Shown piece by piece: positions 734-45,030 of a DNA stretch of 64,000 nucleotides. Source of the stretch: a virus (lineage: Duplodnaviria; Caudoviricetes); IMG/VR virus record IMGVR_UViG_3300028888_000005, positions 36,590-100,589 of that record; one strand, written 5' to 3'. The position numbers and the translations under genes are program-made. The stretch's first letter is position 1. The number at the start of each line of letters is the position of its first letter. Below the pieces are notes generated by a model. That model saw only the letters and a program-made list of their open reading frames with translations. It searched no databases and was not told where the DNA came from.

Positions 734-811
734 ACAAAAATGTCTACAGTTTTTCTACCATAACAGTAAAAATATCTACGCATTTTGTTCAGTGAGCAGT
801 ATGTAGAAAGA

Positions 812-844
812 AAACACAGGAGCTTTCACAAGTCCCTGTGTTTC
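812..844 (-). terminator. Intrinsic terminator after the tRNA 3' fragment (GUGA-loop hairpin)
   Basis: Minus strand reads ACACAGGGACUU-GUGA-AAGCUCCUGUGU followed by a U-rich tail. Confidence 0.75.
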
Positions 845-908: not shown

Positions 909-989
909 TCACCGCCATCAGTAAGTGCCTAATAATCCAATCTTTAACATTATGAAGAAAAATAGTTCTACGCTTCTTCTATATTTGAG

Positions 990-1170
990 AGAGAAAAACC
1001 GCGCCGCTTCACAGGGGCACGGCTTCAACCTTCTAATACCATTAACATAAACCTTTTATCACTTCATCATGCTTATTACGGCCTAAACATTGATTTCCCA
1101 ATCAGATAAAAAACCAATAAACCAATGAATCATTACTACTTTCACTCATGAAAAAATCTTACACTTCTTA
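990..1170 (-). ncRNA. Putative sRNA A (promoter, anti-start-codon segments, GUGA-loop terminator)
   Basis: TATCTTTG at 1177-1184 (-); no convincing ORF; ends in CCGUGCCCCU-GUGA-AGCGGCGCGG-UUUUU (999-1022). Confidence 0.6.
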
Positions 1171-1219
1171 CGTGTGCAAAGATAGCATGAATATCCGTAA
1201 ACACCAAATATTTATCAGA

Positions 1220-1580
1220 AAATCATGCAGATTAGTGTAAACTTTTTGCTGTGCAGATAGGGTGCACAGGCACTCGTAGTAGACATTCTGCGCAGAAAAA
1301 CACCCCCATATAGTTCCATTTCTGTGCATATCCCCCACCCTTTTGTACGGAATTTCTTGTTGTGTACAGGTTCACAAAGTGCCCACTATTAGTACAGAAT
1401 CATTACGTACAGTACATAATGTACATGCAATAATAGCGTACAATCTGTGCAGAAAATGTACGGTAATTTGTGCAGACGATTTGCAGAGAGTCTATTGTAT
1501 ATCGCGTATGAGAGAAAGGGTTAATTTGACAGGATTTATTATATGTCGCGTATACGGAAATAGTCCCCCCGTACCCCACC
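1220..1580. repeat. Non-coding region with iterated GTAC/TGCA(G) motifs and C-tracts; candidate genome terminus or origin
   Basis: About nine GTAC between 1345 and 1574, repeated TGCAG, and tracts such as ccccccgtaccccaccc; lies immediately before the first early gene. Confidence 0.45.
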
Positions 1581-1653
1581 CTATTACAGCGCGAAGGGTA
1601 ATGCCCCCCTCTTCGATGCTGTTATGTTCGGGGGCGCATAGGAGAACCAAGTT

Positions 1654-1911
1654 ATGCAGATCAACCTGCAAACCCCAATCAGTGCCCTGAAGGGCCAGTC
1701 ATTCGTCCTGCTTCAGGACGGCAGTGTTAAACTCAACGGCACCAACGCCGACCTGTACATCAGTCCTGAGATCTTCGCGATGCTCAAGGCTGAGTTCGCC
1801 AAGGCTGAGGCCAAGCGCAACCTGGGCCAGTTCGTGGTCAACCGCAGGGTTAAGACCGTGAACGGCAAGGAGTTCACGAGGTATGAGGTGCGCTTAGGCA
1901 TGACGCTCTGA
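1654..1911 (+). CDS. Early hypothetical protein (85 aa)
   Basis: Strongly biased codon usage; followed by a terminator. Confidence 0.8.
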   Translation: MQINLQTPISALKGQSFVLLQDGSVKLNGTNADLYISPEIFAMLKAEFAKAEAKRNLGQFVVNRRVKTVNGKEFTRYEVRLGMTL

Positions 1912-1920
1912 GTAAATCCC

Positions 1921-1942
1921 AAGAGCCCTTCGGGGCTTTTTT
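1921..1942 (+). terminator. Intrinsic terminator
   Basis: aagagccc-ttcg-gggctttttt. Confidence 0.85.
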
Positions 1943-2084
1943 ATCAATCCCATCAGCCAGATATTGCTATCTTTACATTAACGCAAGGATAACAGCACTG
2001 GTTGGTGGGGCTTACAATTAGCTATTAACTGGCACAAAATAGGCACTGAATGTGTTGAAATGTGCATAAAACTGAAGCAAAACT

Positions 2085-2171
2085 ATGAATATTTACGTTC
2101 TTGCTGATGGTACACTGAGCACTCCATGCACACCAGAGGATGCACAGCAGTACAACAATGAGTGGAAGTAA
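2085..2171 (+). CDS. Small hypothetical peptide (28 aa)
   Basis: MNIYVLADGTLSTPCTPEDAQQYNNEWK with an A-rich leader. Confidence 0.45.
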   Translation: MNIYVLADGTLSTPCTPEDAQQYNNEWK

Positions 2172-2285
2172 AGTACACTCACCGCACTAGATTGAATCGA
2201 GCCGTCTGCCTAAGCAGCCAAATGCTAATAATTTTTTCATGAGTGATTGGGGGATTGCGTTGTGAAACGTGGTCCCCATTTTATT
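2172..2285 (+). ncRNA. Putative sRNA B (anti-start seed plus GUGA-loop terminator)
   Basis: attttttcatgagtga (2231-2246) is identical to the seed in sRNA A; hairpin GGGGAUUGCGUU-GUGA-AACGUGGUCCCC followed by AUUUUAUUU. 5' end not defined. Confidence 0.55.
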
Positions 2286-2415
2286 TATATAACCCGTCAG
2301 CCAAGGAGACGTAAACATACTACCTGATGAAACTTGGACGAAATAGAGATATCGTAGAAATAATTCAAAAACAAGAAAGAGGTCATTGCGAGACCATAAA
2401 CACTGCAAGCACACT

Positions 2416-25351: not shown

Positions 25352-27230
25352 ATGGAACTATACAGATTAGTTATCATCTTCAGCAAGACCCACAATTATG
25401 AGGGCGTCTATAACGATAAGAGTGCCGCCAGCAGGGCATTCAATGAGGCTATAGATCATCCTTTTGCCGTTGGTGCCAACCTCTATGAGTGTGAGTGGGT
25501 GAACAACAAGTTAGAGGACAAGAACCGTATTATAAACTGGATAAAGAAATGAACAAACTGAAGACGACATATAAGCTGCTGAGCCGCTTTGGATTTAGCA
25601 ACCATAGTAATACGGTTCCTGGTGCAGTATGGTATATATGGCCGTCATTGTCAGTCCTATATATCCGTGACTTTAATAAAGAGGTATCCGTTTCATTATC
25701 ATGGTTATGCTTTAGTGTGTATTTCAGAGTAACTAAATTAAGAATTTACGAACAAGATGTTTCAACCGAGTGAAGAAGTAAAAACAGCGTGTCGAGCATA
25801 TATCGACAGCGTTAAAGGTGAGGCATGGTATAACCCTGACCTCGATGATATCATCCTAGACGCATTCTGGGAAGGTGCAATGTGGTACAAATACGTTTAT
25901 CCTAATAATAACAACAATGACAAGAGCAGCGAAAACAAAGATTAACTTACAGACATGCCAACACTGTGAGCATTACATGTGCGGATTCTATAAGTCCACA
26001 CAACTCATCCCTGGCAATGTGTGCAACCTGCGCAAAAAGGAAATGAAGCATATGAAGAATATGTTTCCCAAGCGTGTGTATTACTACAAGGCAAAGCCAG
26101 ATGGCTATTGCAATGAGTTCAAAGAATGGAAACAACCTACTATCAATGAAATCTATGGAGACAACAAAGACTGATATTGGACTGAGGGAATCAGCTAAGC
26201 TGTTCTCAGAAGCTATGGCTGAACGCTACTTTAAGTACGCAAAGAAGGGCAGCAGTATGTTGCTGATTACAGGAGAAGACGGCGAACTGTCAAGCTGTAT
26301 GCTTGGAAAAGGAGGAGATTTGATTAACGCAATAGCGTCATCAATGTCTGAAACTGAAGAAATCAACAGGATTGTGGGCACGGCATTCATGCTGGCTAAC
26401 AATGAAAGTTTAGCGGAACTTTTAAAACAAGACAATGACAATGGAACAGGCGATGTATGAAACAACAATTACAGTTACAGCACTCCTTTGCTTAGCTGCT
26501 GTGTATATCTTCAGTTTAGTTGTTAAGCAAGGTATCAATAAGCGTAAGCTGGCTGAATGCAAGGAAACCATCAGGAAGCTGGAGTTCAGCCTTGACGAGG
26601 CTTCCAGAGTGCTAGAAGCACAGAACAATCAGATCAGTGTACTTAACAGGAAACTGAAGGAGAGTAGACTGATAACAACAATAGAGGACCTAAACAAAGC
26701 ACAAGATGAGCAAAGAACCATACTATAACAGCTACCAACGGGCTGACTACATCAAGCTACAGGCGTATAAGAACGTCATAAGTGAACTGCATAAGCAGCG
26801 TAACGTTTTTGTCAGGACAGGACTTACAGACGCAGCGCAGAGAGTCTGGGGTGAGATATCTATGGCACAGCAGGAACATGATGCACTGAAGCAGAAAATG
26901 GTCCATGACAGAGAAACAATGGCCGCAAGTCTGCTGGAAGTGATTCTGATTGCCAATCTTGCATACGCCAAAGCGATGGAGTTTAGCGAAGTGGTGAAGA
27001 AATGCACAGGCTCGTCGGAGGACGCTCTTGCTCTGGACGTACAGCGTATCTGTAAGATATGCGAAGAAGTGGCACTCAGCGTAGACACCGCAGGCAATGA
27101 CAAGCAGAGCAATGCGTTTAGCGATGTTATTGACGAGATAGAGGAGCAGTATAACAAACAGCTGACACCTATCGTTGACGAAGTGATGCAGAAGTTCAGA
27201 AAAACTAAGCGGTATCAGTCATTATTCTGA
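25352..27230 (+). CDS. Run of seven overlapping small hypothetical genes (25352-25552, 25549-25773, 25757-25945, 25917-26174, 26155-26460, 26435-26728, 26706-27230)
   Basis: Tiled + strand ORFs with overlapping starts and stops; 26435 has a TM helix plus coiled coil. Confidence 0.65.
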
Positions 27231-27262
27231 CGAAGAAACTTGCATAGTTTACGAATGATTAT

Positions 27263-27270
27263 TACCTTTG
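27263..27270 (+). promoter_or_regulatory. -7 element TACCTTTG driving sRNA C
   Basis: Consensus match with a TTG -33-like element near 27240. Confidence 0.7.
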
Positions 27271-27274
27271 TGTG

Positions 27275-27407
27275 TTGTTTTTCATCATAACTATACTTTT
27301 TGCTATTGGTTTTTATAATGTAGTATGAGGATTAAGAGTTCATATTCATAGATAGAAGATGTGTTATTATACCCCACCGTCTGTGAAGATAGTGGGGTTT
27401 TTATTTT
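27275..27407 (+). ncRNA. Putative sRNA C (promoter, anti-start segments, GUGA-loop terminator)
   Basis: U-rich with no convincing ORF; tttttcatcataa and gttcatattcatag; hairpin CCCCACCGUCU-GUGA-AGAUAGUGGGG followed by UUUUU. Confidence 0.6.
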
Positions 27408-27453
27408 ATATTACTAAAGCACTAATATGTTTAGCACCAATGAATAGCTGCAC

Positions 27454-27461
27454 TACTTTTG
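27454..27461 (+). promoter_or_regulatory. -7 element TACTTTTG
   Basis: Upstream of the ATG at 27481. Confidence 0.65.
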
Positions 27462-27480
27462 CGTAAAAATATTGAACATT

Positions 27481-43100: not shown

Positions 43101-44925
43101 CTGTATCCAAAGACGTATGACATCGGAGCAACGATTCAGGGCCAACTTCACATTGAATCCTAAGCAGCTGTGGGACAACATAACCCAGCAGCTAGCAGCT
43201 GACTACATCGTCAAAGAGGATGACTACATGGAAGCAGGAGAAGCTTCGGGCACATTAGACTTCCAAGGTAATGAGCGTCTGGTTATACCTGCGCCATATA
43301 TAAGAATGCTCAAGAACCCAGAGGAGCTCAGTACGGACATTGTAGGCTGCCTTGTGGCTTATGCCTATGCGACAGAGAACTACAAGGGTATGCGCGGCAT
43401 CGCTAACCCGCTTGAGGTGGCATTTGAGGCTGTAGTATCAAACAAGGTACAGACTCAGTACAGAGGTAACCGTCCTGTGGTTGAACGTTACAGGTCAGGA
43501 AGAAAGTCAAAGGCTGTGGTTAAAGAAAGCAGGTTATTGCAGAAGATGCGTAGCTTCATGGACACCCAGTTATACATGAGGTACATCCAGGATGAGGATG
43601 ATATTGTGACATTCTTCGGCACTCAGTTCCGTAAGTCTAAAGCGGTTAACGGGTTCCTGCGCATCTCAGCTGTGACTAAGCTTGGTTTTAACTGGCTTGT
43701 GGACCTTGCAAGTCTTGCTAACGGCATCTTCCAAACCAACATCGAAGCTGCTGCTAGACGCTATTTCAGCGGCACAGCACTACGTAACGCAGACGCTGTG
43801 TACTGGAAAGAATTACCATCATTTGTGGCTGACCTGGCTAATCCCATTAAGCAAAGCAGACTTGCGCTGATCAGTGAGAAGCTGAATATCATGCAGAACT
43901 TTGACGTGAAGGTCTACAATAACAGGCGCAACAATACTGTGGCTAAGATATTCAACACTCAGGTAGCGTTTATGGGCACCACATGCGGTAATCATTGGTT
44001 GTATCATCGTGTTGCCATAGCCCGTATGCTAAGCACTAAAGTGATTGTAGACGGAGTTGAGACAAACCTATGGGATGCGTTTGAGGTTGTAGACCTGCCA
44101 AACGGAGGAAAGGAAGCAAGGATAAAAGCAGGCGCAAAGCTTGAAGACGGAACCGCTATCGACGGCAAGTGGTTGTCTGAGTTTGGCAGGGAAACGGACC
44201 ATATCAATCATCAGCTCATCGGTATCTATAACCGTGATGACATGAACATGGCGCAGAAGATCAGCTGGATGCGTTTGTTGCAGGCATTCCGTAAACACAT
44301 CGTACCACAGATGGACAGGCGCTGGAGAGCCAAGCACATGAACGAGTTCGGTAAAGAGGAAGAAGGCTTCTACCGTACATTATTATCCTATCTGCAAGCG
44401 GTTAAGTCTGCTCAGTTTAAGTTCCTTGCTGTATACGATGAACTCAGCGAGGAGGACAAACAGAATGTGCGTGCAGCAATAACCGACATCGTTCAGTGGG
44501 GCTCACTGATACTGCTCACTACACTTGCGTCAATGATTGGTGACGATGACGATGATGACGATAAGGAAGCGTGGCTGATGAAGATATGTAAGTATCTGTT
44601 GGCACGTGAGAAGCACGAGCTGGGTAGTATGTTCAATCCTCTGGACTTTGGTGACGAGGTTGTGAACACACTGGACCAGCCATTCATGGGCACCAGTGTA
44701 CTGGCTGACGTGTTTAACTTCACTAAGACTGTGGTTACTCCGTGGACGTGGGGAGACACGGTTAATGCAGGACCATTCCAAGGACAGTCAGAGCTGGAAA
44801 TGCGTTTCCGTAAACTTCCTATTCCTATCTTGTCCTACTATAGGAACATTGACAAATCGCTGCATGGGGTGGATAACTCTACGTGGTTCTATAACCGTGG
44901 TTATGTTGGCGGAACGGCCAGATAA
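31144..44925 (+). CDS. Giant virion-associated DNA-dependent RNA polymerase (crAss/phi14:2 gp66-like) with a fused C-terminal helical region
   Basis: IGYRIPTE...GEITTLTGGDNDVDKLF catalytic DxDxD at 38170-38184; IVDSAK; about 4590 aa from the ATG at 31144. Confidence 0.9.
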   Translation: MAETFCTQIRDDELEPIVDRWLEDLDSNDEKQDILNFPGTLPRGSSLLGKGKDKIMKYFGEVIRSHSTDKANPTMPKNVNQMTSWIKTYQSKQKDQAQREAEGKNGSILISDTTEDMTEITGILDQPLAVTSSGSYKGSVRKNIADLVRTKLEEQWPGDYESFMQSKEMQDIVKAFSSGDYNLSLNDLMAIIIVASGVNKDGNPQLTAKQVKQILNGNGVGLIHGKYNNYALANPGITEFERTVMQTLVSLYAAKNPKFLTDLQSTGDKTIKASSGASRQYKLLANALRMVRSKSEPVMVNDPDNMALGPWAHIPFIPNDSFFNKISRIVNASLARKGKAPITDLAQKLRTDYDYAQASNSDFEGFYSPYSLLLALQEYIAADGIVVNFMDKAANQATNLDTERDSNGEYTGLLDAQAVTEILDEGYKEALDPSKSGFAVDSVRQAMIRSGINELQDSDEEDGYRRELVQVVTKYRNKVLAQEASFQDETAGDMLLDEVELSEQGERFRKLTTRICEARFDPNRLREHTDCIAANLLKFAETQRYYMVYENNETIATKEADIERMKARLAKIEADESRTEEDEQAVAKTREKLERWERDIQKLKQENEALRGEHTWRRAALKKCMYTQRDKDGHVIFKGAIDYAIGKAMDTPAKQEGETDEHYEGRKQEVAQIGAMRDQLLCRAFMKLEMMTGIHIILNSQNEFEVADDETEVQIQDNQNENDEYSGEVRSKDMMDFDTEQDPVAHLTQNVKAEFALIPMVDANNQPLLDSMGREQYYDVQHIYISMLSMHNRKITEASDFMVKIKPEEYAEKLTAKKRNARIYPSLYDEEGDRYEYQGRETKHMRTLEQAFPDGFPTFPVLEANRGRYPWIDQLIYKLECSYMQRTENQDDVDALTKTALITDIAAALSYDYEVRAMYRESPGGHSNKVFLTNRVADVEGLRAMQRMNYFNRIMLSETSVYNSDGSVNEKNVRRLRARLADLPSAESVPYDDKWTPAKYAKELVSILNSFGISADINAITAELKSVGNVDGLVRMSKLVSATDTLAAYLIGEQGSWPNGVPMDDIYAERGGAWNRFYDSVGFYVNAEFFPITTSEAGVTRQNMIAKNTFMKIRDIITYNHEELRITPESHKAHRKKLLDERRKKIDKHFKASLWDETTGRYRNELLQQLYDGKDVEFRQADGTDKWAENSTRISNIAGSMMLSAMDEKKKEQFSPTDMLAVQLSAFLRHLESPTTNGSAMFSFPILADAPVLQFTSGKVRSEDECIDTMVRFTEDELDRIEHNTMLKRDWARVQALSAEPQKYNGKRYYDAADKEWKDVPTEDKWMWKRDVLIGKYLAAVKEGDTEKADKYRNQLEALSQQHLVEAKKEQNNEKIWTVDEAIKLYQDLARYIPASTMFTREMQLCQIPELNVMRMKLNTIVDRVAERMAARESTEAGKEATIMETTVYLGELFKRYKDDDKFTMRGMLDAVPMEDSDMRREIIRAYVAEAMEREYKRYLGDKELQITEPHSRHKELANLNRLESVLQGTVDFNGERWELVAANMAGEIDIDGDPISTWKLRSLDNPERVIALTDKQIQYYESREAGILLGSSTFKGDDNTYNVNTIRNFRPRFSNHEQLWGILKHVVGKQKKPGTNQNYTQDDVHDAVRSMLYNTFAHNTEMMQIMGIDPSQFNGEDDVTKRLKGLHSNGTTLFSGAEIGFDVDYQIIVDDDEGRVSDDLPNVAEKIFADRKIRTDDAVDRITAWTKMNATNAQGHTTLEGHRAKCAMGGSSNYDSQKEKNYQDLKNNGDRHLGRDYNPYAQGETTKPMDFAMINDTDPYGRTVRRCYYGKNSEAPMVTRFGDANVSAQLMAIDQFATETEFSGKRKITTVQRPSGVKSAKKGVLKLHYLKSRVGALAALAKGEITPEQFKKKYQKELGDAVKLDTNLIKFFGDFVAAMADLYGVNLDYLTFEDVDKFIRADKAKAAQGRKKLPKFSDLEFNGLEGIIAAWAKGRDNYTAKDIQNAKNMMQALMSLRKFMLPVKATKNTINELKQEMRSKLVVERQTENGTEFDMNDQYIYGVDVNFECFQVRQSNHFYESTIHMGSQASFLLPSGINLDRAEINGYDVEINGTKKKVSGTDLYTKYNQVLAARLVVGVLKLRELFGTDKKALKALQKRIVNIAQNNPKYGPDVVQAVQIVIDKVGDTDGIPRFSTPLGSVAVLYKVSDLLTSFVRAETHRSKVNGGVAIIEGDVGYDDNLHIVRDNGKIVGIECYLPPHTRAIIEKCLVEKTITDNGQKRKVKVLDVNKLKEIGADKLIGYRIPTEEYHSMLPLIVKDFFPSYRGGSVVVAGEITTLTGGDNDVDKLFLMVKNLAKDAEGNLKPVEYDWDTPLSEQIKNLDVNDKKALKTFMAQLENMYIDMSLALLTDKENESRFLSPQNPDKFKVASNRVAYLTLPADMKMRIRRTDMKAVWAPDDPNWDNTDYYLPSDGRNLDDASIKAHLDRIASYPVQSLRSITHYNQQYALADSGVAIGANRLSIATKIRTGLNVVKGTNYPGMEITKGKNMGTSGLRWGKDDGGSGTPLLYAAEVDEENNSVQDNMTDFIAAIVDSAKSPWAINAGLTPDNADFAAFLLMCGFSKDAMCYVMKILNRNPNFMARFGKLRKELIGEGKPYADDQDLGYLNKDKFPDALLCGVSRPALLKKETLEKDADLMALCNVLYNLQQVYKSMRPWEKTLGFNSAKNGLSNEPASALLAIMQVTDVNEKVMADKLPVAIPHELALKNGLTWEEIVEGKAGDDRLGMWLSQMYYTLGVESFMDVMNGKLFYANPAFFKIVLQFKDTINSMSKEDAIKFIRHLHDNFAAYYLSDMKMVTETVNDAGETEKKGFTEMRNYYRYKYPRLVQSGRAFDRKGLASKYPIIRAIDFKDGKMFINQELVRNEATAAAVKSSLVKMAYSPIASERRIARDLFLYSFFTDGLRFGFGSVSNSFTAAFLASPAFKEYNMGVFNMVNAQISGKDMRRFCEQFVRAHYKKYQFGPLFRMVCAPYNAEKPDEAVKEETLANNVYDEVTPQEVARLEKWLSNPASNGVLPLTKPTENVLDKHGRVALRADGDYPSQLVSRLAKKEDGFIFRVQESYEVYNQGLFMLRKFDDQMYIVKLNDMASRDSWFCRDMTIEEQAAKDCSGNPLVGRVGDWDRVAQGRKMVEEEQKRPRCLKGIPEKPWWAKYGSEDAVENGGDEEAPGADDDMPEDEGMWPEDEDSFTEESWGDETMDGDEEEITFEYVPRRGDKTREINLNNFAGLTAPEGEEENKSQDTDDDTDGWTETGETVRFMMDSDDVSERKKQWKEKYHAVDGFTDRKEAITAAYRINKDTEQTEFIATVQRAPRGDKYIVILSDINNESKQRVWRNQYGVSVMTGTQGINSVVGAVGNREVNMVEDDGSTIDDYNEEVNDLIDILEAVLSGEPLQPMSAKASLDIARKIYNVGDRMVALRDTLWYMMKNGAAGHSGTDIIRTIMPRDADVIIDMVNNSSERNDEAVQRMIAAILELGPSAETAFSDMGITTYNPAWIDGAVRDAFSVLPVEDAIIQLQEVKRRASVEERNTRTTEERRRAQQFHDEVNRGVTVATKLRAILETAVINEERLSKMSVEQHVSVDTVHSINSRVSLLDGILKNGTIGIRDIASYLMAVAQEYKNWEPFMTSLGDGSNDWPKQRQVDALARVLTILRAHEETIGELKELIAGDQTHTLSAGDKKALNDLVNTIDAMHKMMQDVFDEHAGDVFIGFVEEFAGKLPQFYRDGHRMTWKQLMEAMDGDISWLDMRARSMGETNDPVGQIFDRIVKLAKDQVREKVIKRVQGEIRDLNQMILDKGISDFEFAFEHDENSKKTGYYLSKLNWGAFAKERDEQKRKFDEADTKYRNGEISEDEYKAAKDAWDAWKSANAIEDEQMHTLSPADIDKWRNPEWVRLRDNEPDKFAILQKFTKIKEDLDKNLGRQTVHERCIQRRMTSEQRFRANFTLNPKQLWDNITQQLAADYIVKEDDYMEAGEASGTLDFQGNERLVIPAPYIRMLKNPEELSTDIVGCLVAYAYATENYKGMRGIANPLEVAFEAVVSNKVQTQYRGNRPVVERYRSGRKSKAVVKESRLLQKMRSFMDTQLYMRYIQDEDDIVTFFGTQFRKSKAVNGFLRISAVTKLGFNWLVDLASLANGIFQTNIEAAARRYFSGTALRNADAVYWKELPSFVADLANPIKQSRLALISEKLNIMQNFDVKVYNNRRNNTVAKIFNTQVAFMGTTCGNHWLYHRVAIARMLSTKVIVDGVETNLWDAFEVVDLPNGGKEARIKAGAKLEDGTAIDGKWLSEFGRETDHINHQLIGIYNRDDMNMAQKISWMRLLQAFRKHIVPQMDRRWRAKHMNEFGKEEEGFYRTLLSYLQAVKSAQFKFLAVYDELSEEDKQNVRAAITDIVQWGSLILLTTLASMIGDDDDDDDKEAWLMKICKYLLAREKHELGSMFNPLDFGDEVVNTLDQPFMGTSVLADVFNFTKTVVTPWTWGDTVNAGPFQGQSELEMRFRKLPIPILSYYRNIDKSLHGVDNSTWFYNRGYVGGTAR

Positions 44926-44962: not shown

Positions 44963-45030
44963 GAACCAGGGACTTCATCACGAGGCCCCTGGTTCTGCTC
45001 CAAAACTAATTGATATGAAAAAGTATTACA
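44963..45030 (-). terminator. Terminator between convergent genes; putative 3'UTR-derived sRNA D
   Basis: Minus strand uacuuuuucauaucaauuaguuuugg, then GAACCAGGGGCCUC-GUGAU-GAAGUCCCUGGUUC. Confidence 0.6.

Follow-up and report, generated by a model that had tools for sequence, protein, structure and literature searches.

A putative chimeric FopS-like small RNA beside the attP site of a temperate crAss-like phage

Does a temperate crAss-like phage encode small RNAs built like those of its host? In Bacteroides thetaiotaomicron, FopS sRNAs pair beside the start codon of mRNAs for SusC-like outer-membrane transporters and block translation (Ruettiger et al., Nat Commun 2025; PMC11697453). FopS is the best-understood post-transcriptional switch of polysaccharide-utilization transporters in gut Bacteroidota, and SusC-like proteins and surface glycans are the first contact of Bacteroidales phages. 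The window, the 64,000-nucleotide stretch analyzed here, comes from a crAss-like phage of the sheep gut with a circular genome of 100.6 kb, an integrase and a tRNA-Ser(GGA) attP. The genome record has a terminal overlap of 127 bp. A preliminary description of the window grouped four non-coding loci, A to D, as one family of putative phage sRNAs directed against host start codons.

The hosts are likely ruminant Muribaculaceae because of the att core, the identity of a seed in locus A with host sRNAs (below), and the sheep origin of the phage. The attP contains a 3' fragment of tRNA-Ser(GGA) at 846-925, and this tRNA core has an exact match in 55 host species, in which the intact gene is tRNA-Ser(GGA). 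The G+C content is 53% in the candidate host versus ~45% in the phage. No phage sequence adjoins tRNA-Ser at the 55 host loci, and a search for lysogens with the exact terminator sequence of A gave no match in 185,579 species genomes.

An abundant small RNA beside attP

We found that A gives rise to an abundant, discrete RNA. A metatranscriptome contig of 132 nt (depth 140) matched A exactly over 128 nt, at 1030-1157. In the same run there was zero cover on both sides (600-842 and 1167-1571), the integrase included. The preliminary description had predicted discrete transcripts, and this is one. The RNA evidence consists of assembled contigs; we infer that A is read from the minus strand as an RNA of ~175 nt (994-1172), with its ends placed by the promoter box and the terminator. 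A depth of 149 at 1005-1085 in another run (X2) was not counted as expression of A; host sRNA genes that share the seed may contribute to it. Such genes are also a possible source of a spike of 967 at 1005-1085 in a DNA run (X4).

A appears to have its own promoter, as had been described for both A and C. The putative box, TAtcTTTG at 1177-1184 (minus strand), reads as the Bacteroidota sigma-ABfr -7 type and is unchanged in two sister strains (L004 and L005). RNA cover of A ends at 1157, just downstream of the box. An intrinsic terminator with a U-GUGA-A loop and a U run lies at 995-1026 (minus strand). Host RNA polymerase would most likely transcribe A from this box leftward to attP and stop at the terminator.

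The 3' part of A is well conserved between the phage and the two sister strains, which are 90-93% identical overall. The last ~75 nt (seed and terminator) are nearly invariant, the only changes being the loss of one C and a T>C shortly past the terminator U run, and the 29-nt seed (AAGGUUUAUGUUAAUGGUAUUAGAAGGUU, 1027-1055, minus strand) is invariant. In the middle of A there are 7 substitutions and 3 indels. The 5' half carries phage-specific U-rich CAU boxes (UUUUUUCAUGAG and others). Among them is an R1-like box (AUUUUUUCAUGAGUGA, 1142-1157, minus strand), a phage version of the core of the FopS 5' seed that is identical to a box in B; one A is lost from it in both sister strains.

A coding reading of A and B was rejected. 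The mini-ORFs are short (sense, 15 aa in A and 8 aa in B; antisense, 30 aa and 17 aa), and in L004 and L005 they are frameshifted, truncated or without their ATG; those across A are frameshifted on either strand. CATG is a palindrome, hence an ATG is available on either strand.

Host relatives of the 3' half of A

We found that the 29-nt seed of A is identical to module 2 of a multicopy host sRNA family. This Muribaculaceae two-module ("tandem") FopS-like family was delineated in the present analysis from 19 host copies (L096-L114), which are promoter-to-terminator units located between housekeeping genes. The seed is invariant among the 19 copies, and the terminator helix shows compensatory changes at 5 of its 10 pairs, with 93.7% of cells paired. 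A 24-nt core of the seed was present in 26 of 151 genomes of the candidate host family, at 2-7 copies each; the reversed-pattern control gave one match.

A covariance model built from the host copies only (R1) had a sole match in 104 kb of phage genome. This was A (990-1067, minus strand; 34.2 bits, E 9.6e-5, spanning the full model), which has both parts of module 2, the covarying terminator and AAGGUUUAUGUUAAUGGUAUUAGAAGGUU with 29/29 identity. In contrast, module 1 is missing in A: a profile of GUUUUUCAUGGUAUUAGUUUUUAAGGU plus the middle GNRA hairpin (R2), which does detect the units of six other phage contigs, matched neither the window nor the remaining phage genome at E<=10. In A, the place of host module 1 is taken by CAUGAG and UUCAUUGG boxes together with a variable 8-nt tandem repeat. 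The host sRNAs otherwise resemble A in having the same 29 nt followed by a GNRA-type terminator, the same promoter type, and a total length of ~170 nt. As judged from these comparisons, A is a chimeric relative of the host multicopy FopS-like sRNAs, with the host seed in its 3' half and phage boxes in its 5' half.

The preliminary description had not picked out the conserved host-identical element at 1027-1055. It had suggested mimicry of a host sRNA class like the B. thetaiotaomicron family, and this holds for A in its 29 nt, its layout, and its kinship to host units that are themselves sub-threshold FopS matches. Scored with the Rfam FopS model (RF04319), the host units reached 35-49 bits, and one canonical FopS copy in a host genome (G018) reached 78 bits. 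RF04319 had no match at E<=5 within 780-2400 or 27200-27480, and B, C and D were unmatched; its best match in the phage genome, in A (989-1052, minus strand; 14.5 bits, E 0.66), missed the gathering threshold of 56 bits. Rfam at gathering thresholds found nothing in the window, and relaxing the thresholds brought no sRNA family match to A, B or C.

Related units were found in other phages. The 24-nt core was exact in 7 IMG/VR contigs. The unit of one distant relative (G002; integrase 64% identical) is shorter and shares with A the promoter type, CAUGAG box, 24-mer and GUGA terminator; its R1-like box reads UUUUUUUUCAUGAGGUAAAG. An IMG/VR search for the phage-variant box TTTTTTCATGAGKKAAAG returned only this relative and four chance matches. 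Among GenBank phages, the host two-module unit had no match, and a canonical FopS copy matched 5 records, none crAss-like and none annotated.

These findings might also indicate that the phage units are passengers, that is, pieces of host FopS-like genes acquired by recombination and disseminated without regulatory benefit, with the RNA of A coming from a host promoter that was kept. Such an origin would account for a seed that is 29/29 host-identical between unrelated flanks. It also fits the location of the unit, which varies in related phages (at attP here, at the position of C in G002), the resemblance of C to a decaying copy, and the exact FopS seeds in >109 IMG/VR contigs. A phage copy of FopS has been remarked on, and dissemination proposed, for a Bacteroides phage (PMC11697453; Ruettiger et al.). 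However, seed and terminator are constant in the sister strains while the body drifts, the phage-specific CAUGAG box is common to two phages with integrases just 64% identical, and the RNA is highly abundant. Nor was there a FopS-like seed or gene in the 8-kb stretches around the attB tRNA-Ser at the 55 host loci; therefore simple imprecise excision does not explain capture, and the attB flank was ruled out as the source of A. We consider passenger copies rather unlikely.

The position of A might instead point to an element acting as DNA, in which GGTATTAG-type motifs by attP bind integrase arms, excisionase or a host factor, or serve as recombination hot spots, with the RNA a by-product. A sits 70-250 bp from the attP core, and in other phage contigs the motif adjoins partial tRNAs and sits within tRNA arrays. 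This is extremely improbable in view of the host motif, which always lies within a promoter-to-terminator unit far from tRNA-Ser, of G002, which has the same attP and lacks the motif there, and of the abundance of the RNA of A.

Boxes and hairpins at loci B, C and D

The preliminary description took a 16-mer shared by A and B as key evidence for a family. The 16-mer (ATTTTTTCATGAGTGA) is at 1142-1157 (minus strand) and 2231-2246 (plus strand), as described. The phage genome, with the 127-bp terminal overlap left out, contains 4 exact repeats of at least 16 nt (one palindrome and one tandem repeat among them are trivial) versus ~2.3 expected, so the shared 16-mer alone is not significant. It also decays in the sister strains.

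We found that UUUUUCAU boxes and U-GUGA-A terminators occur together more often than chance allows (P about 5e-4). Across the two strands of the 100-kb genome there are only 6 occurrences of TTTTTCAT, of which 4 fall within A-D in sense orientation. Of 26 terminator-like hairpins, 3 have TTTTTCAT within the preceding 130 nt, whereas dinucleotide shuffles predict 0.16 (P = 5e-4). These 3 are all among the four GTGA-loop hairpins (P ~0.0015 by hand count). In 415 kb of candidate-host DNA around tRNA-Ser, none of 52 tetraloop terminator-like hairpins had a GTGA loop. Of the four hairpins that had been described as GUGA-capped, those of A, B (2250-2277, plus strand) and C (27371-27398, plus strand) have 11-13-bp stems, the U-GUGA-A loop and a U run; that of D does not have the loop. 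The list of hairpin loci was also incomplete. Another U-GUGA-A hairpin with a T run is at 811-844 (minus strand), after the attP tRNA-Ser(GGA) 3' fragment, and shares the loop and not the sRNA module.

Rather than being a separate locus, B forms the 3' end of an abundant early mRNA. The mRNA runs from ~1619 and contains 85-aa and 28-aa ORFs; an RNA contig over 1619-2252 had a depth of 323, and the following contig had a depth of 32. The conserved block of B (2222-2283, plus strand) contains the R1-like box at 2231-2246, the terminator and a U tail. It is retained in L005 and in run X6 although the upstream 28-aa ORF region is replaced there. B is possibly a 3'UTR-type FopS-like module.

C is a stand-alone promoter-to-terminator unit of ~130 nt (27275-27405, plus strand), as read from its sequence. 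A putative promoter box, TAccTTTG, is at 27263-27270 (plus strand), and UUUUUCAU, predicted to be single-stranded, is at the extreme 5' end (27278-27285). R1 scored C at 21.1 bits with filters off only; weak matches of C to BTnc201 and PyrR were set aside as terminator noise. The position of C is syntenic with that of the A-like unit of G002, which is preceded by the same TTACCTTTG box and upstream TTGCAT as C. C is probably a diverged family member.

Past the stop of a 2478-aa gene, D (44963-45022, minus strand) combines a hairpin (44963-44995) with a UUUUUCAU box (45015-45022). The apex of the hairpin is CUC-GUGAU-GAAG, with no GUGA tetraloop; the U tail is absent, and neither model matched D. 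The simplest reading of D, a weak sRNA candidate, is a hairpin in a 3'UTR where two giant ORFs converge. With B at an mRNA 3' end, D between convergent genes and C only weakly alignable, A-D do not stand as one homogeneous family. B and C are probably looser modules of the design of A, and D probably is not one.

One could also regard B, C, D and the hairpin of A as ordinary GNRA-loop terminators, with the CAU boxes and the 16-mer arising by chance in AT-rich DNA. The genome-wide repeat count, the features missing from D, the roughly tenfold fall in depth where B ends an mRNA, the boxless GUGA terminator behind the tRNA fragment, and the lack of a match of B and D to any family model all agree with this. 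However, it leaves A unexplained (the host-identical 29-mer, the model match and the discrete RNA), and it does not fit the co-occurrence of box and GTGA loop (P = 5e-4 by shuffling), the conservation of the B box next to a replaced ORF, or the position of C, the counterpart of a clear family member in G002. We judge it very unlikely.

Possible targets, role and known systems

Searches for targets of the phage RNAs gave none. Inside the phage, complementarity tops out at 11-12 nt, which is the chance level; ORF 3579, the sole phage gene beginning ATGAAAAA, has matches of 8-9 nt only. Two candidate-host genomes contained no near-perfect sites, and the 16-mer had 0 candidate-host target sites at <=1 mismatch. 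Exact matches to the FopS-type seed in the host were the sRNA genes themselves, with a few sites at 1-2 mismatches, and exact matches to the shared seed were likewise the sRNA genes alone. When 12 SusC-like start regions of the candidate host were compared with ~300 other genes, they showed no better pairing with the seeds (p = 0.4 for the shared seed, p = 0.04 for the 5' part of A). A perfect site of 11 nt, ACCATTAACAT, lies in one susC leader within ~30 nt upstream of the AUG.

The preliminary description anticipated that the seeds would be complementary to host start regions beyond shuffled controls. By an ungapped pairing score this was clear for B (z 4.3-7.4; equaled in 0 of 200 shuffles), and not for A, C and the 29-mer (z 0.5-2). 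The test had low power because a bona fide host seed, used as a positive control, also gave just z ~1.4.

The lack of a good mRNA target might mean that the phage RNAs act mainly as decoys for a protein. RbpB, an RRM protein, recognizes the conserved 5' region of FopS, which is single-stranded, in a sequence-specific manner and works against the repression (PMC11697453). Phage RNAs that titrate RbpB or another FopS partner could release or strengthen host FopS repression of transporter synthesis, and several copies of the conserved box are kept on abundant phage transcripts. However, the RbpB motif is 41 nt and the phage boxes retain 8-12 nt of the module-1 part, and the reported affinity of RbpB is low, in the micromolar range (PMC11697453). 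We think that a decoy function is quite unlikely.

On balance, we favor the explanation that A is a ~175-nt phage regulatory RNA, a chimeric FopS relative, that most likely pairs with host initiation regions. By analogy with FopS of B. thetaiotaomicron, the phage RNAs would pair with A-rich translation-initiation regions of host mRNAs, typically those of SusC-like and other envelope proteins beginning MKK, and so prevent ribosome loading. They may also engage the host protein RbpB. Start-codon blocking, as proposed in the preliminary description, is published for FopS (PMC11697453), and our searches found no host or phage target of the phage RNAs. The idea of FopS-like, start-codon-directed host mimicry was largely right in kind, and the function of the phage RNAs would follow from that likeness.

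It is possible, if doubtful, that temperate crAss-like phages, along with many other phages of Bacteroidales, deliberately encode chimeric mimics of the FopS regulon and that A is a lysogenic-conversion factor. If so, the host-identical seed would give entry to the host SusC-type transporter network, and the CAU boxes would provide new targets at start codons. With its expression coming from the end of the prophage next to attP, A could remodel the surface, leading to receptor loss and superinfection exclusion; alternatively, A could redirect the uptake of glycans in infected cells. The roles first suggested for these RNAs, namely receptor silencing, superinfection exclusion and anti-defense, are speculation.

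The expression evidence, the host-identical seed and the temperate crAss-like setting are new. In the literature searched, FopS in a phage was mentioned once, in passing (PMC11697453), and a 2026 review of sRNAs in Bacteroides is silent on phages. The A locus offers a test case that combines an abundant temperate crAss-like phage, a highly expressed sRNA, a host-identical seed and conserved phage boxes. If the phage RNA regulates host transporters, it would add a layer of phage-host interaction in gut and rumen that is probably widespread. If it does not, phages would at least be vectors that spread the FopS-like sRNA family.

Prophage sRNAs that plug into host post-transcriptional networks have precedents in enterobacteria, among them DicF, IpeX and the anti-sRNAs AgvB and AsxR of EHEC. 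They belong to other phyla and are Hfq-dependent, and some act through mimicry; AgvB and AsxR are mimics of targets and not of the sRNA itself. We know of no sequence relationship between these sRNAs and the phage RNAs studied here.

Closer comparisons are with two sRNAs of B. thetaiotaomicron. GibS shares the seed R1 with FopS (PMC11697453, citing Ryan et al. 2020). Compared at the R1 core only, GibS resembles the phage RNAs in its U-rich R1 seed, which in GibS targets translation-initiation regions; it differs in having a second seed (R2) and a non-canonical promoter.

FopS itself differs from the phage RNAs in length and setting. It is 65-70 nt long, whereas C is ~130 nt and A is ~175 nt with its seed in the 3' half behind phage-specific boxes. 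FopS is known from a Bacteroidaceae setting, whereas A is phage-encoded in a probable Muribaculaceae setting and is known here from sequence and RNA contigs. Of R1', the single-stranded 5' seed conserved in FopS (consensus GUGUUUUUCAUGGUAUUAGAU), A, B, C and D have just the core UUUUU(U)CAU(G). What appears to be shared is a U-rich single-stranded segment with UUUUUCAU(G), the words AUGGUAUUAGA and AGGUUAA of the seed (in A, AUGGUAUUAGA and AGGUU stand in the 3' seed), and a terminator capped by GUGA(A), which follows the seed region as a GUGAA loop in A, B and C and not in D. The TAnnTTTG promoter of FopS has its apparent counterparts in the boxes of A and C. FopS is also present in several copies per genome, one of them 3'UTR-derived (PMC11697453), and B, at the 3' end of its mRNA, would parallel that member.

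Locus A and its host family

We found that locus A (994-1172, minus strand) is expressed and chimeric, a phage-encoded relative of a host family of sRNAs resembling FopS (Rfam RF04319, from Bacteroides thetaiotaomicron). Phage-specific U-rich boxes containing CAU are followed by a host 29-nt segment (1027-1055; the shared seed) and a GUGA terminator.

The host family was delineated with the 24-mer AAGGTTTATGTTAATGGTATTAGA, which is present in 26 of 151 genomes of the candidate-host family, at 2-7 copies each and on both strands. A reversed control pattern gave a single match in the same genomes. The host copies are uniform ~170-nt units between housekeeping genes. Each has a TAnnTTTG promoter, GUUUUUCAUGGUAUUAGUUUUUAAGGU at the 5' end, a middle GNRA hairpin, an invariant AAGGUUUAUGUUAAUGGUAUUAGAAGGUUAAUUAG, and a terminator whose stem has compensatory changes at 5 of 10 pairs; the second seed is invariant over 35 nt. 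With RF04319, the first (5') module scored 35-49 bits and the second (3') module 24-27 bits, both below threshold, and a canonical FopS copy in the candidate-host MAG G018 scored 78 bits. This two-module FopS-like family of ruminant Muribaculaceae (L096-L114; MAGs G001, G018 and others) appears to be undescribed. AAGGTTTATGTTAATGGTATTAGA was also found intact in seven viral contigs, most of them unrelated to this phage; in the unrelated contigs it lies within tRNA arrays or beside partial tRNAs.

A covariance model of module 2, built from 19 host copies only, had one match in the phage genome. This was A (34.2 bits, E 9.6e-5 over the full model). Locus C (27275-27405, plus strand) reached 21 bits with filters off only, mostly from its terminator. 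The host module-1 profile had no match in this phage, and A scored only 14.5 bits with RF04319.

The preliminary description had proposed a common layout for A, C and two further loci, B (2222-2283, plus strand) and D (44963-45022, minus strand). Four strong hairpins in the genome share the loop hexamer U-GUGA-A and a T run: the terminators of A (995-1026, minus strand), B (2250-2277, plus strand) and C (27371-27398, plus strand), and one following a tRNA fragment (811-844, minus strand). TTTTTCAT occurs six times in the genome, counting both strands, and four of the six are sense-oriented copies within A, B, C and D. It lies no more than 130 nt upstream of 3 of 26 terminator-like hairpins, where dinucleotide shuffles predict 0.16 (P = 5e-4), and these three hairpins all have a GTGA loop. 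This co-occurrence indicates that the layout is non-random for A, B and C. D is a weak candidate. Its hairpin, between two convergent giant genes, has the apex GUGAU and no U tail. A 16-mer common to A and B is present as claimed, but such a repeat is close to chance expectation; ~2.3 exact 16-mer repeats are expected in the 100-kb genome versus four observed, two of them trivial.

Phage setting and relatives

The phage genome, from sheep gut, is a single 100,589-bp contig (the window is its bases 36590-100589) with a 127-bp terminal overlap, indicating that it is circular. It encodes giant ORFs of 4609, 2478 and 1812 aa. Over 82% of its length, the 1812-aa protein shares 33-35% identity with 'stabilization'/virion proteins of crAss-like phages, which places the phage in Crassvirales. 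On the minus strand, the left edge of the window has an integrase gene (start at 737) and the 3' portion of a tRNA (846-925), which is followed by a terminator. ARAGORN called no tRNA at this fragment. Its 55-nt core has an exact match in MAGs of 55 species of ruminant Muribaculaceae and Sodaliphilus, in which it is part of tRNA-Ser(GGA). The fragment is a classical attP. The sheep MAG G001 contains the exact att core and three exact copies of AAGGTTTATGTTAATGGTATTAGA.

Both A and B are retained in L004 and L005, two metagenome contigs from sister strains with an overall identity of 90-93%. The promoter, first box and last ~75 nt of A are nearly invariant; within the 3' ~75 nt, the sister strains differ only by one deleted C and by a T>C directly past the U run of the terminator. 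Seven substitutions and three indels fall in the middle of A, and one of the indels, the loss of one unit of an 8-nt tandem repeat, frameshifts all small ORFs. The 16-mer has decayed in these strains, lacking one A in locus A and altered at one or two positions in B.

G002 (IMGVR_UViG_3300021255_002777), a distant relative whose integrase is 64% identical, shares the attP layout but lacks A at that site. Searching G002 for TTTTTCAT revealed a 95-nt unit elsewhere, containing a TTACCTTTG promoter, UUUUUUUUCAUGAGGUAAAG, 24 nt identical to A and a GUGA terminator. The unit is in an interval syntenic with locus C, and the two promoter regions can be aligned. The promoter type of C, its GUGA terminator, its position matching the G002 unit, and UUUUUCAU at its very 5' end, where FopS also has it, are best explained if C is a diverged family copy.

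Expression of A and B and the early region

Run X3, a sheep-gut metatranscriptome, contains a 132-nt contig (depth 140) identical to the phage over 1030-1157. In the same run there was zero cover at the integrase start (600-842) and at 1167-1571, so the contig is not carried-over DNA. Its overlap with the host-shared seed is only 26 nt, shorter than the assembler word length, which we take to be 31; the contig should therefore be specific to the phage. Strand and exact RNA ends are not readable from contigs, and we infer the minus strand for A from a TAtcTTTG box (1177-1184) and the terminator. In a DNA run (X4), summed depth was 967 in the bin 1005-1085, where phage depth is otherwise about 8. 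This spike would best be explained by short matches from many host sRNA copies with the 29-nt seed and terminator.

An RNA contig covering 1619-2252, whose first letters are adapter, had a depth of 323, and the next, starting at 2232, a depth of 32. B therefore forms the 3' terminus of an abundant early mRNA that contains the 85-aa and 28-aa ORFs, and transcription partly reads through it. It combines a FopS-like box with a terminator and is placed at an mRNA 3' end much as the 3'UTR-derived FopS-14 is; it could equally be merely a conserved terminator module. The block 2222-2283 is retained in L005 despite a replaced upstream 28-aa ORF region and an absent downstream cassette.

The early region of the phage is a cassette-wise mosaic. 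In L005 and a further run (X6), an unrelated allele of about the same length takes the place of the 28-aa ORF (2085-2171), which lies between a UUCG terminator (1921-1945) and B; the flanking promoter region and B block are retained. Directly 3' of the B terminator is a full-length match to RF03152 (RAGATH-1 hammerhead ribozyme; 2294-2358, plus strand; 49.1 bits versus a gathering threshold of 56.3, E 9.4e-7); the cassette from 2295 to ~2847 is absent from L005. A C-run-rich 42-nt element (1556-1597), 90% identical to G002 (L002 5381-5422), lies 22-63 nt upstream of the adapter-tagged RNA contig end at 1619 and is probably the promoter/operator of the abundant early transcript (85-aa ORF, 1654-1911). 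Between this promoter and the divergent A promoter, about ten copies (counted by eye) of CTGTGCAG or GTACAG-like motifs occupy 1200-1500, and G002 has similar motifs in the corresponding position (L002 5440-5790). These motifs may serve a lysis-lysogeny switch or an origin, as operators or iterons.

Targets, mechanism and FopS in other phages

The single-stranded 5' seed of FopS sRNAs pairs beside the start codon of SusC-like mRNAs and blocks translation (PMC11697453). No phage-internal targets beyond chance were found, nor any near-perfect site for the 16-mer or shared seed in the two candidate-host genomes searched; the FopS-type seed had a few sites with 1-2 mismatches in candidate-host genomes. 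Twelve SusC-like start regions of G001 paired no better than ~300 other genes, and one of the twelve has an 11-nt perfect shared-seed site upstream of the AUG, within about 30 nt. Complementarity of the seeds to host starts, asserted previously, was clear against dinucleotide shuffles for the B box (z 4-7) and not for A, C, D and the shared seed (z 0.5-2.4); windows inside genes gave no signal. A genuine host seed used as a control scored no better, indicating that the shuffle test is underpowered.

The loci might instead be passenger copies, plain terminators, a DNA-level site, or a decoy for RbpB, the host RRM protein that binds the FopS 5' seed region and counteracts FopS sRNAs (PMC11697453). 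The original 'anti-start-codon' proposal follows the same logic as the published FopS mechanism. Given that shared logic, A most likely acts like FopS, and would pair beside start codons to block translation.

Five unannotated FopS copies are present in GenBank phages, none of which is crAss-like. Among IMG/VR viral contigs, more than 109 (L132-L211) have an exact match to the FopS seed TTTTTCATGGTATTAGNTTT; in them the seed often precedes a GUGA hairpin and adjoins tRNA-like sequence. None of 77 inspected viral contigs had a TAnnTTTG box just upstream of the seed, and none of 13 tested seed-bearing contigs reached the RF04319 threshold. Bacteroides phage BX-TP2 (PQ571285.1; an isolated phage of Bacteroides xylanisolvens) has an unannotated FopS-like stretch at 44803-44851, which matches a canonical host copy at 90% identity over 49 nt. 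Rumen phage contigs L090 (1380-2460), L089, L091 and L093-L095 have tRNA arrays with a repeated inter-tRNA module of GUUUUUCAUGGUA, a GNRA-capped hairpin and often AAACAUCAC. Each array has one fused FopS-like unit without a host-type promoter or U tail; these units may be sRNAs processed from tRNA-array transcripts.

The FopS family is already known, and the authors who described it mention one phage copy in passing. New here are the transcription evidence for a phage FopS-like sRNA, a phage seed identical to that of the candidate host's own, apparently undescribed, two-module family, a conserved phage-specific box, and a location in a temperate crAss-like phage, at the prophage end.
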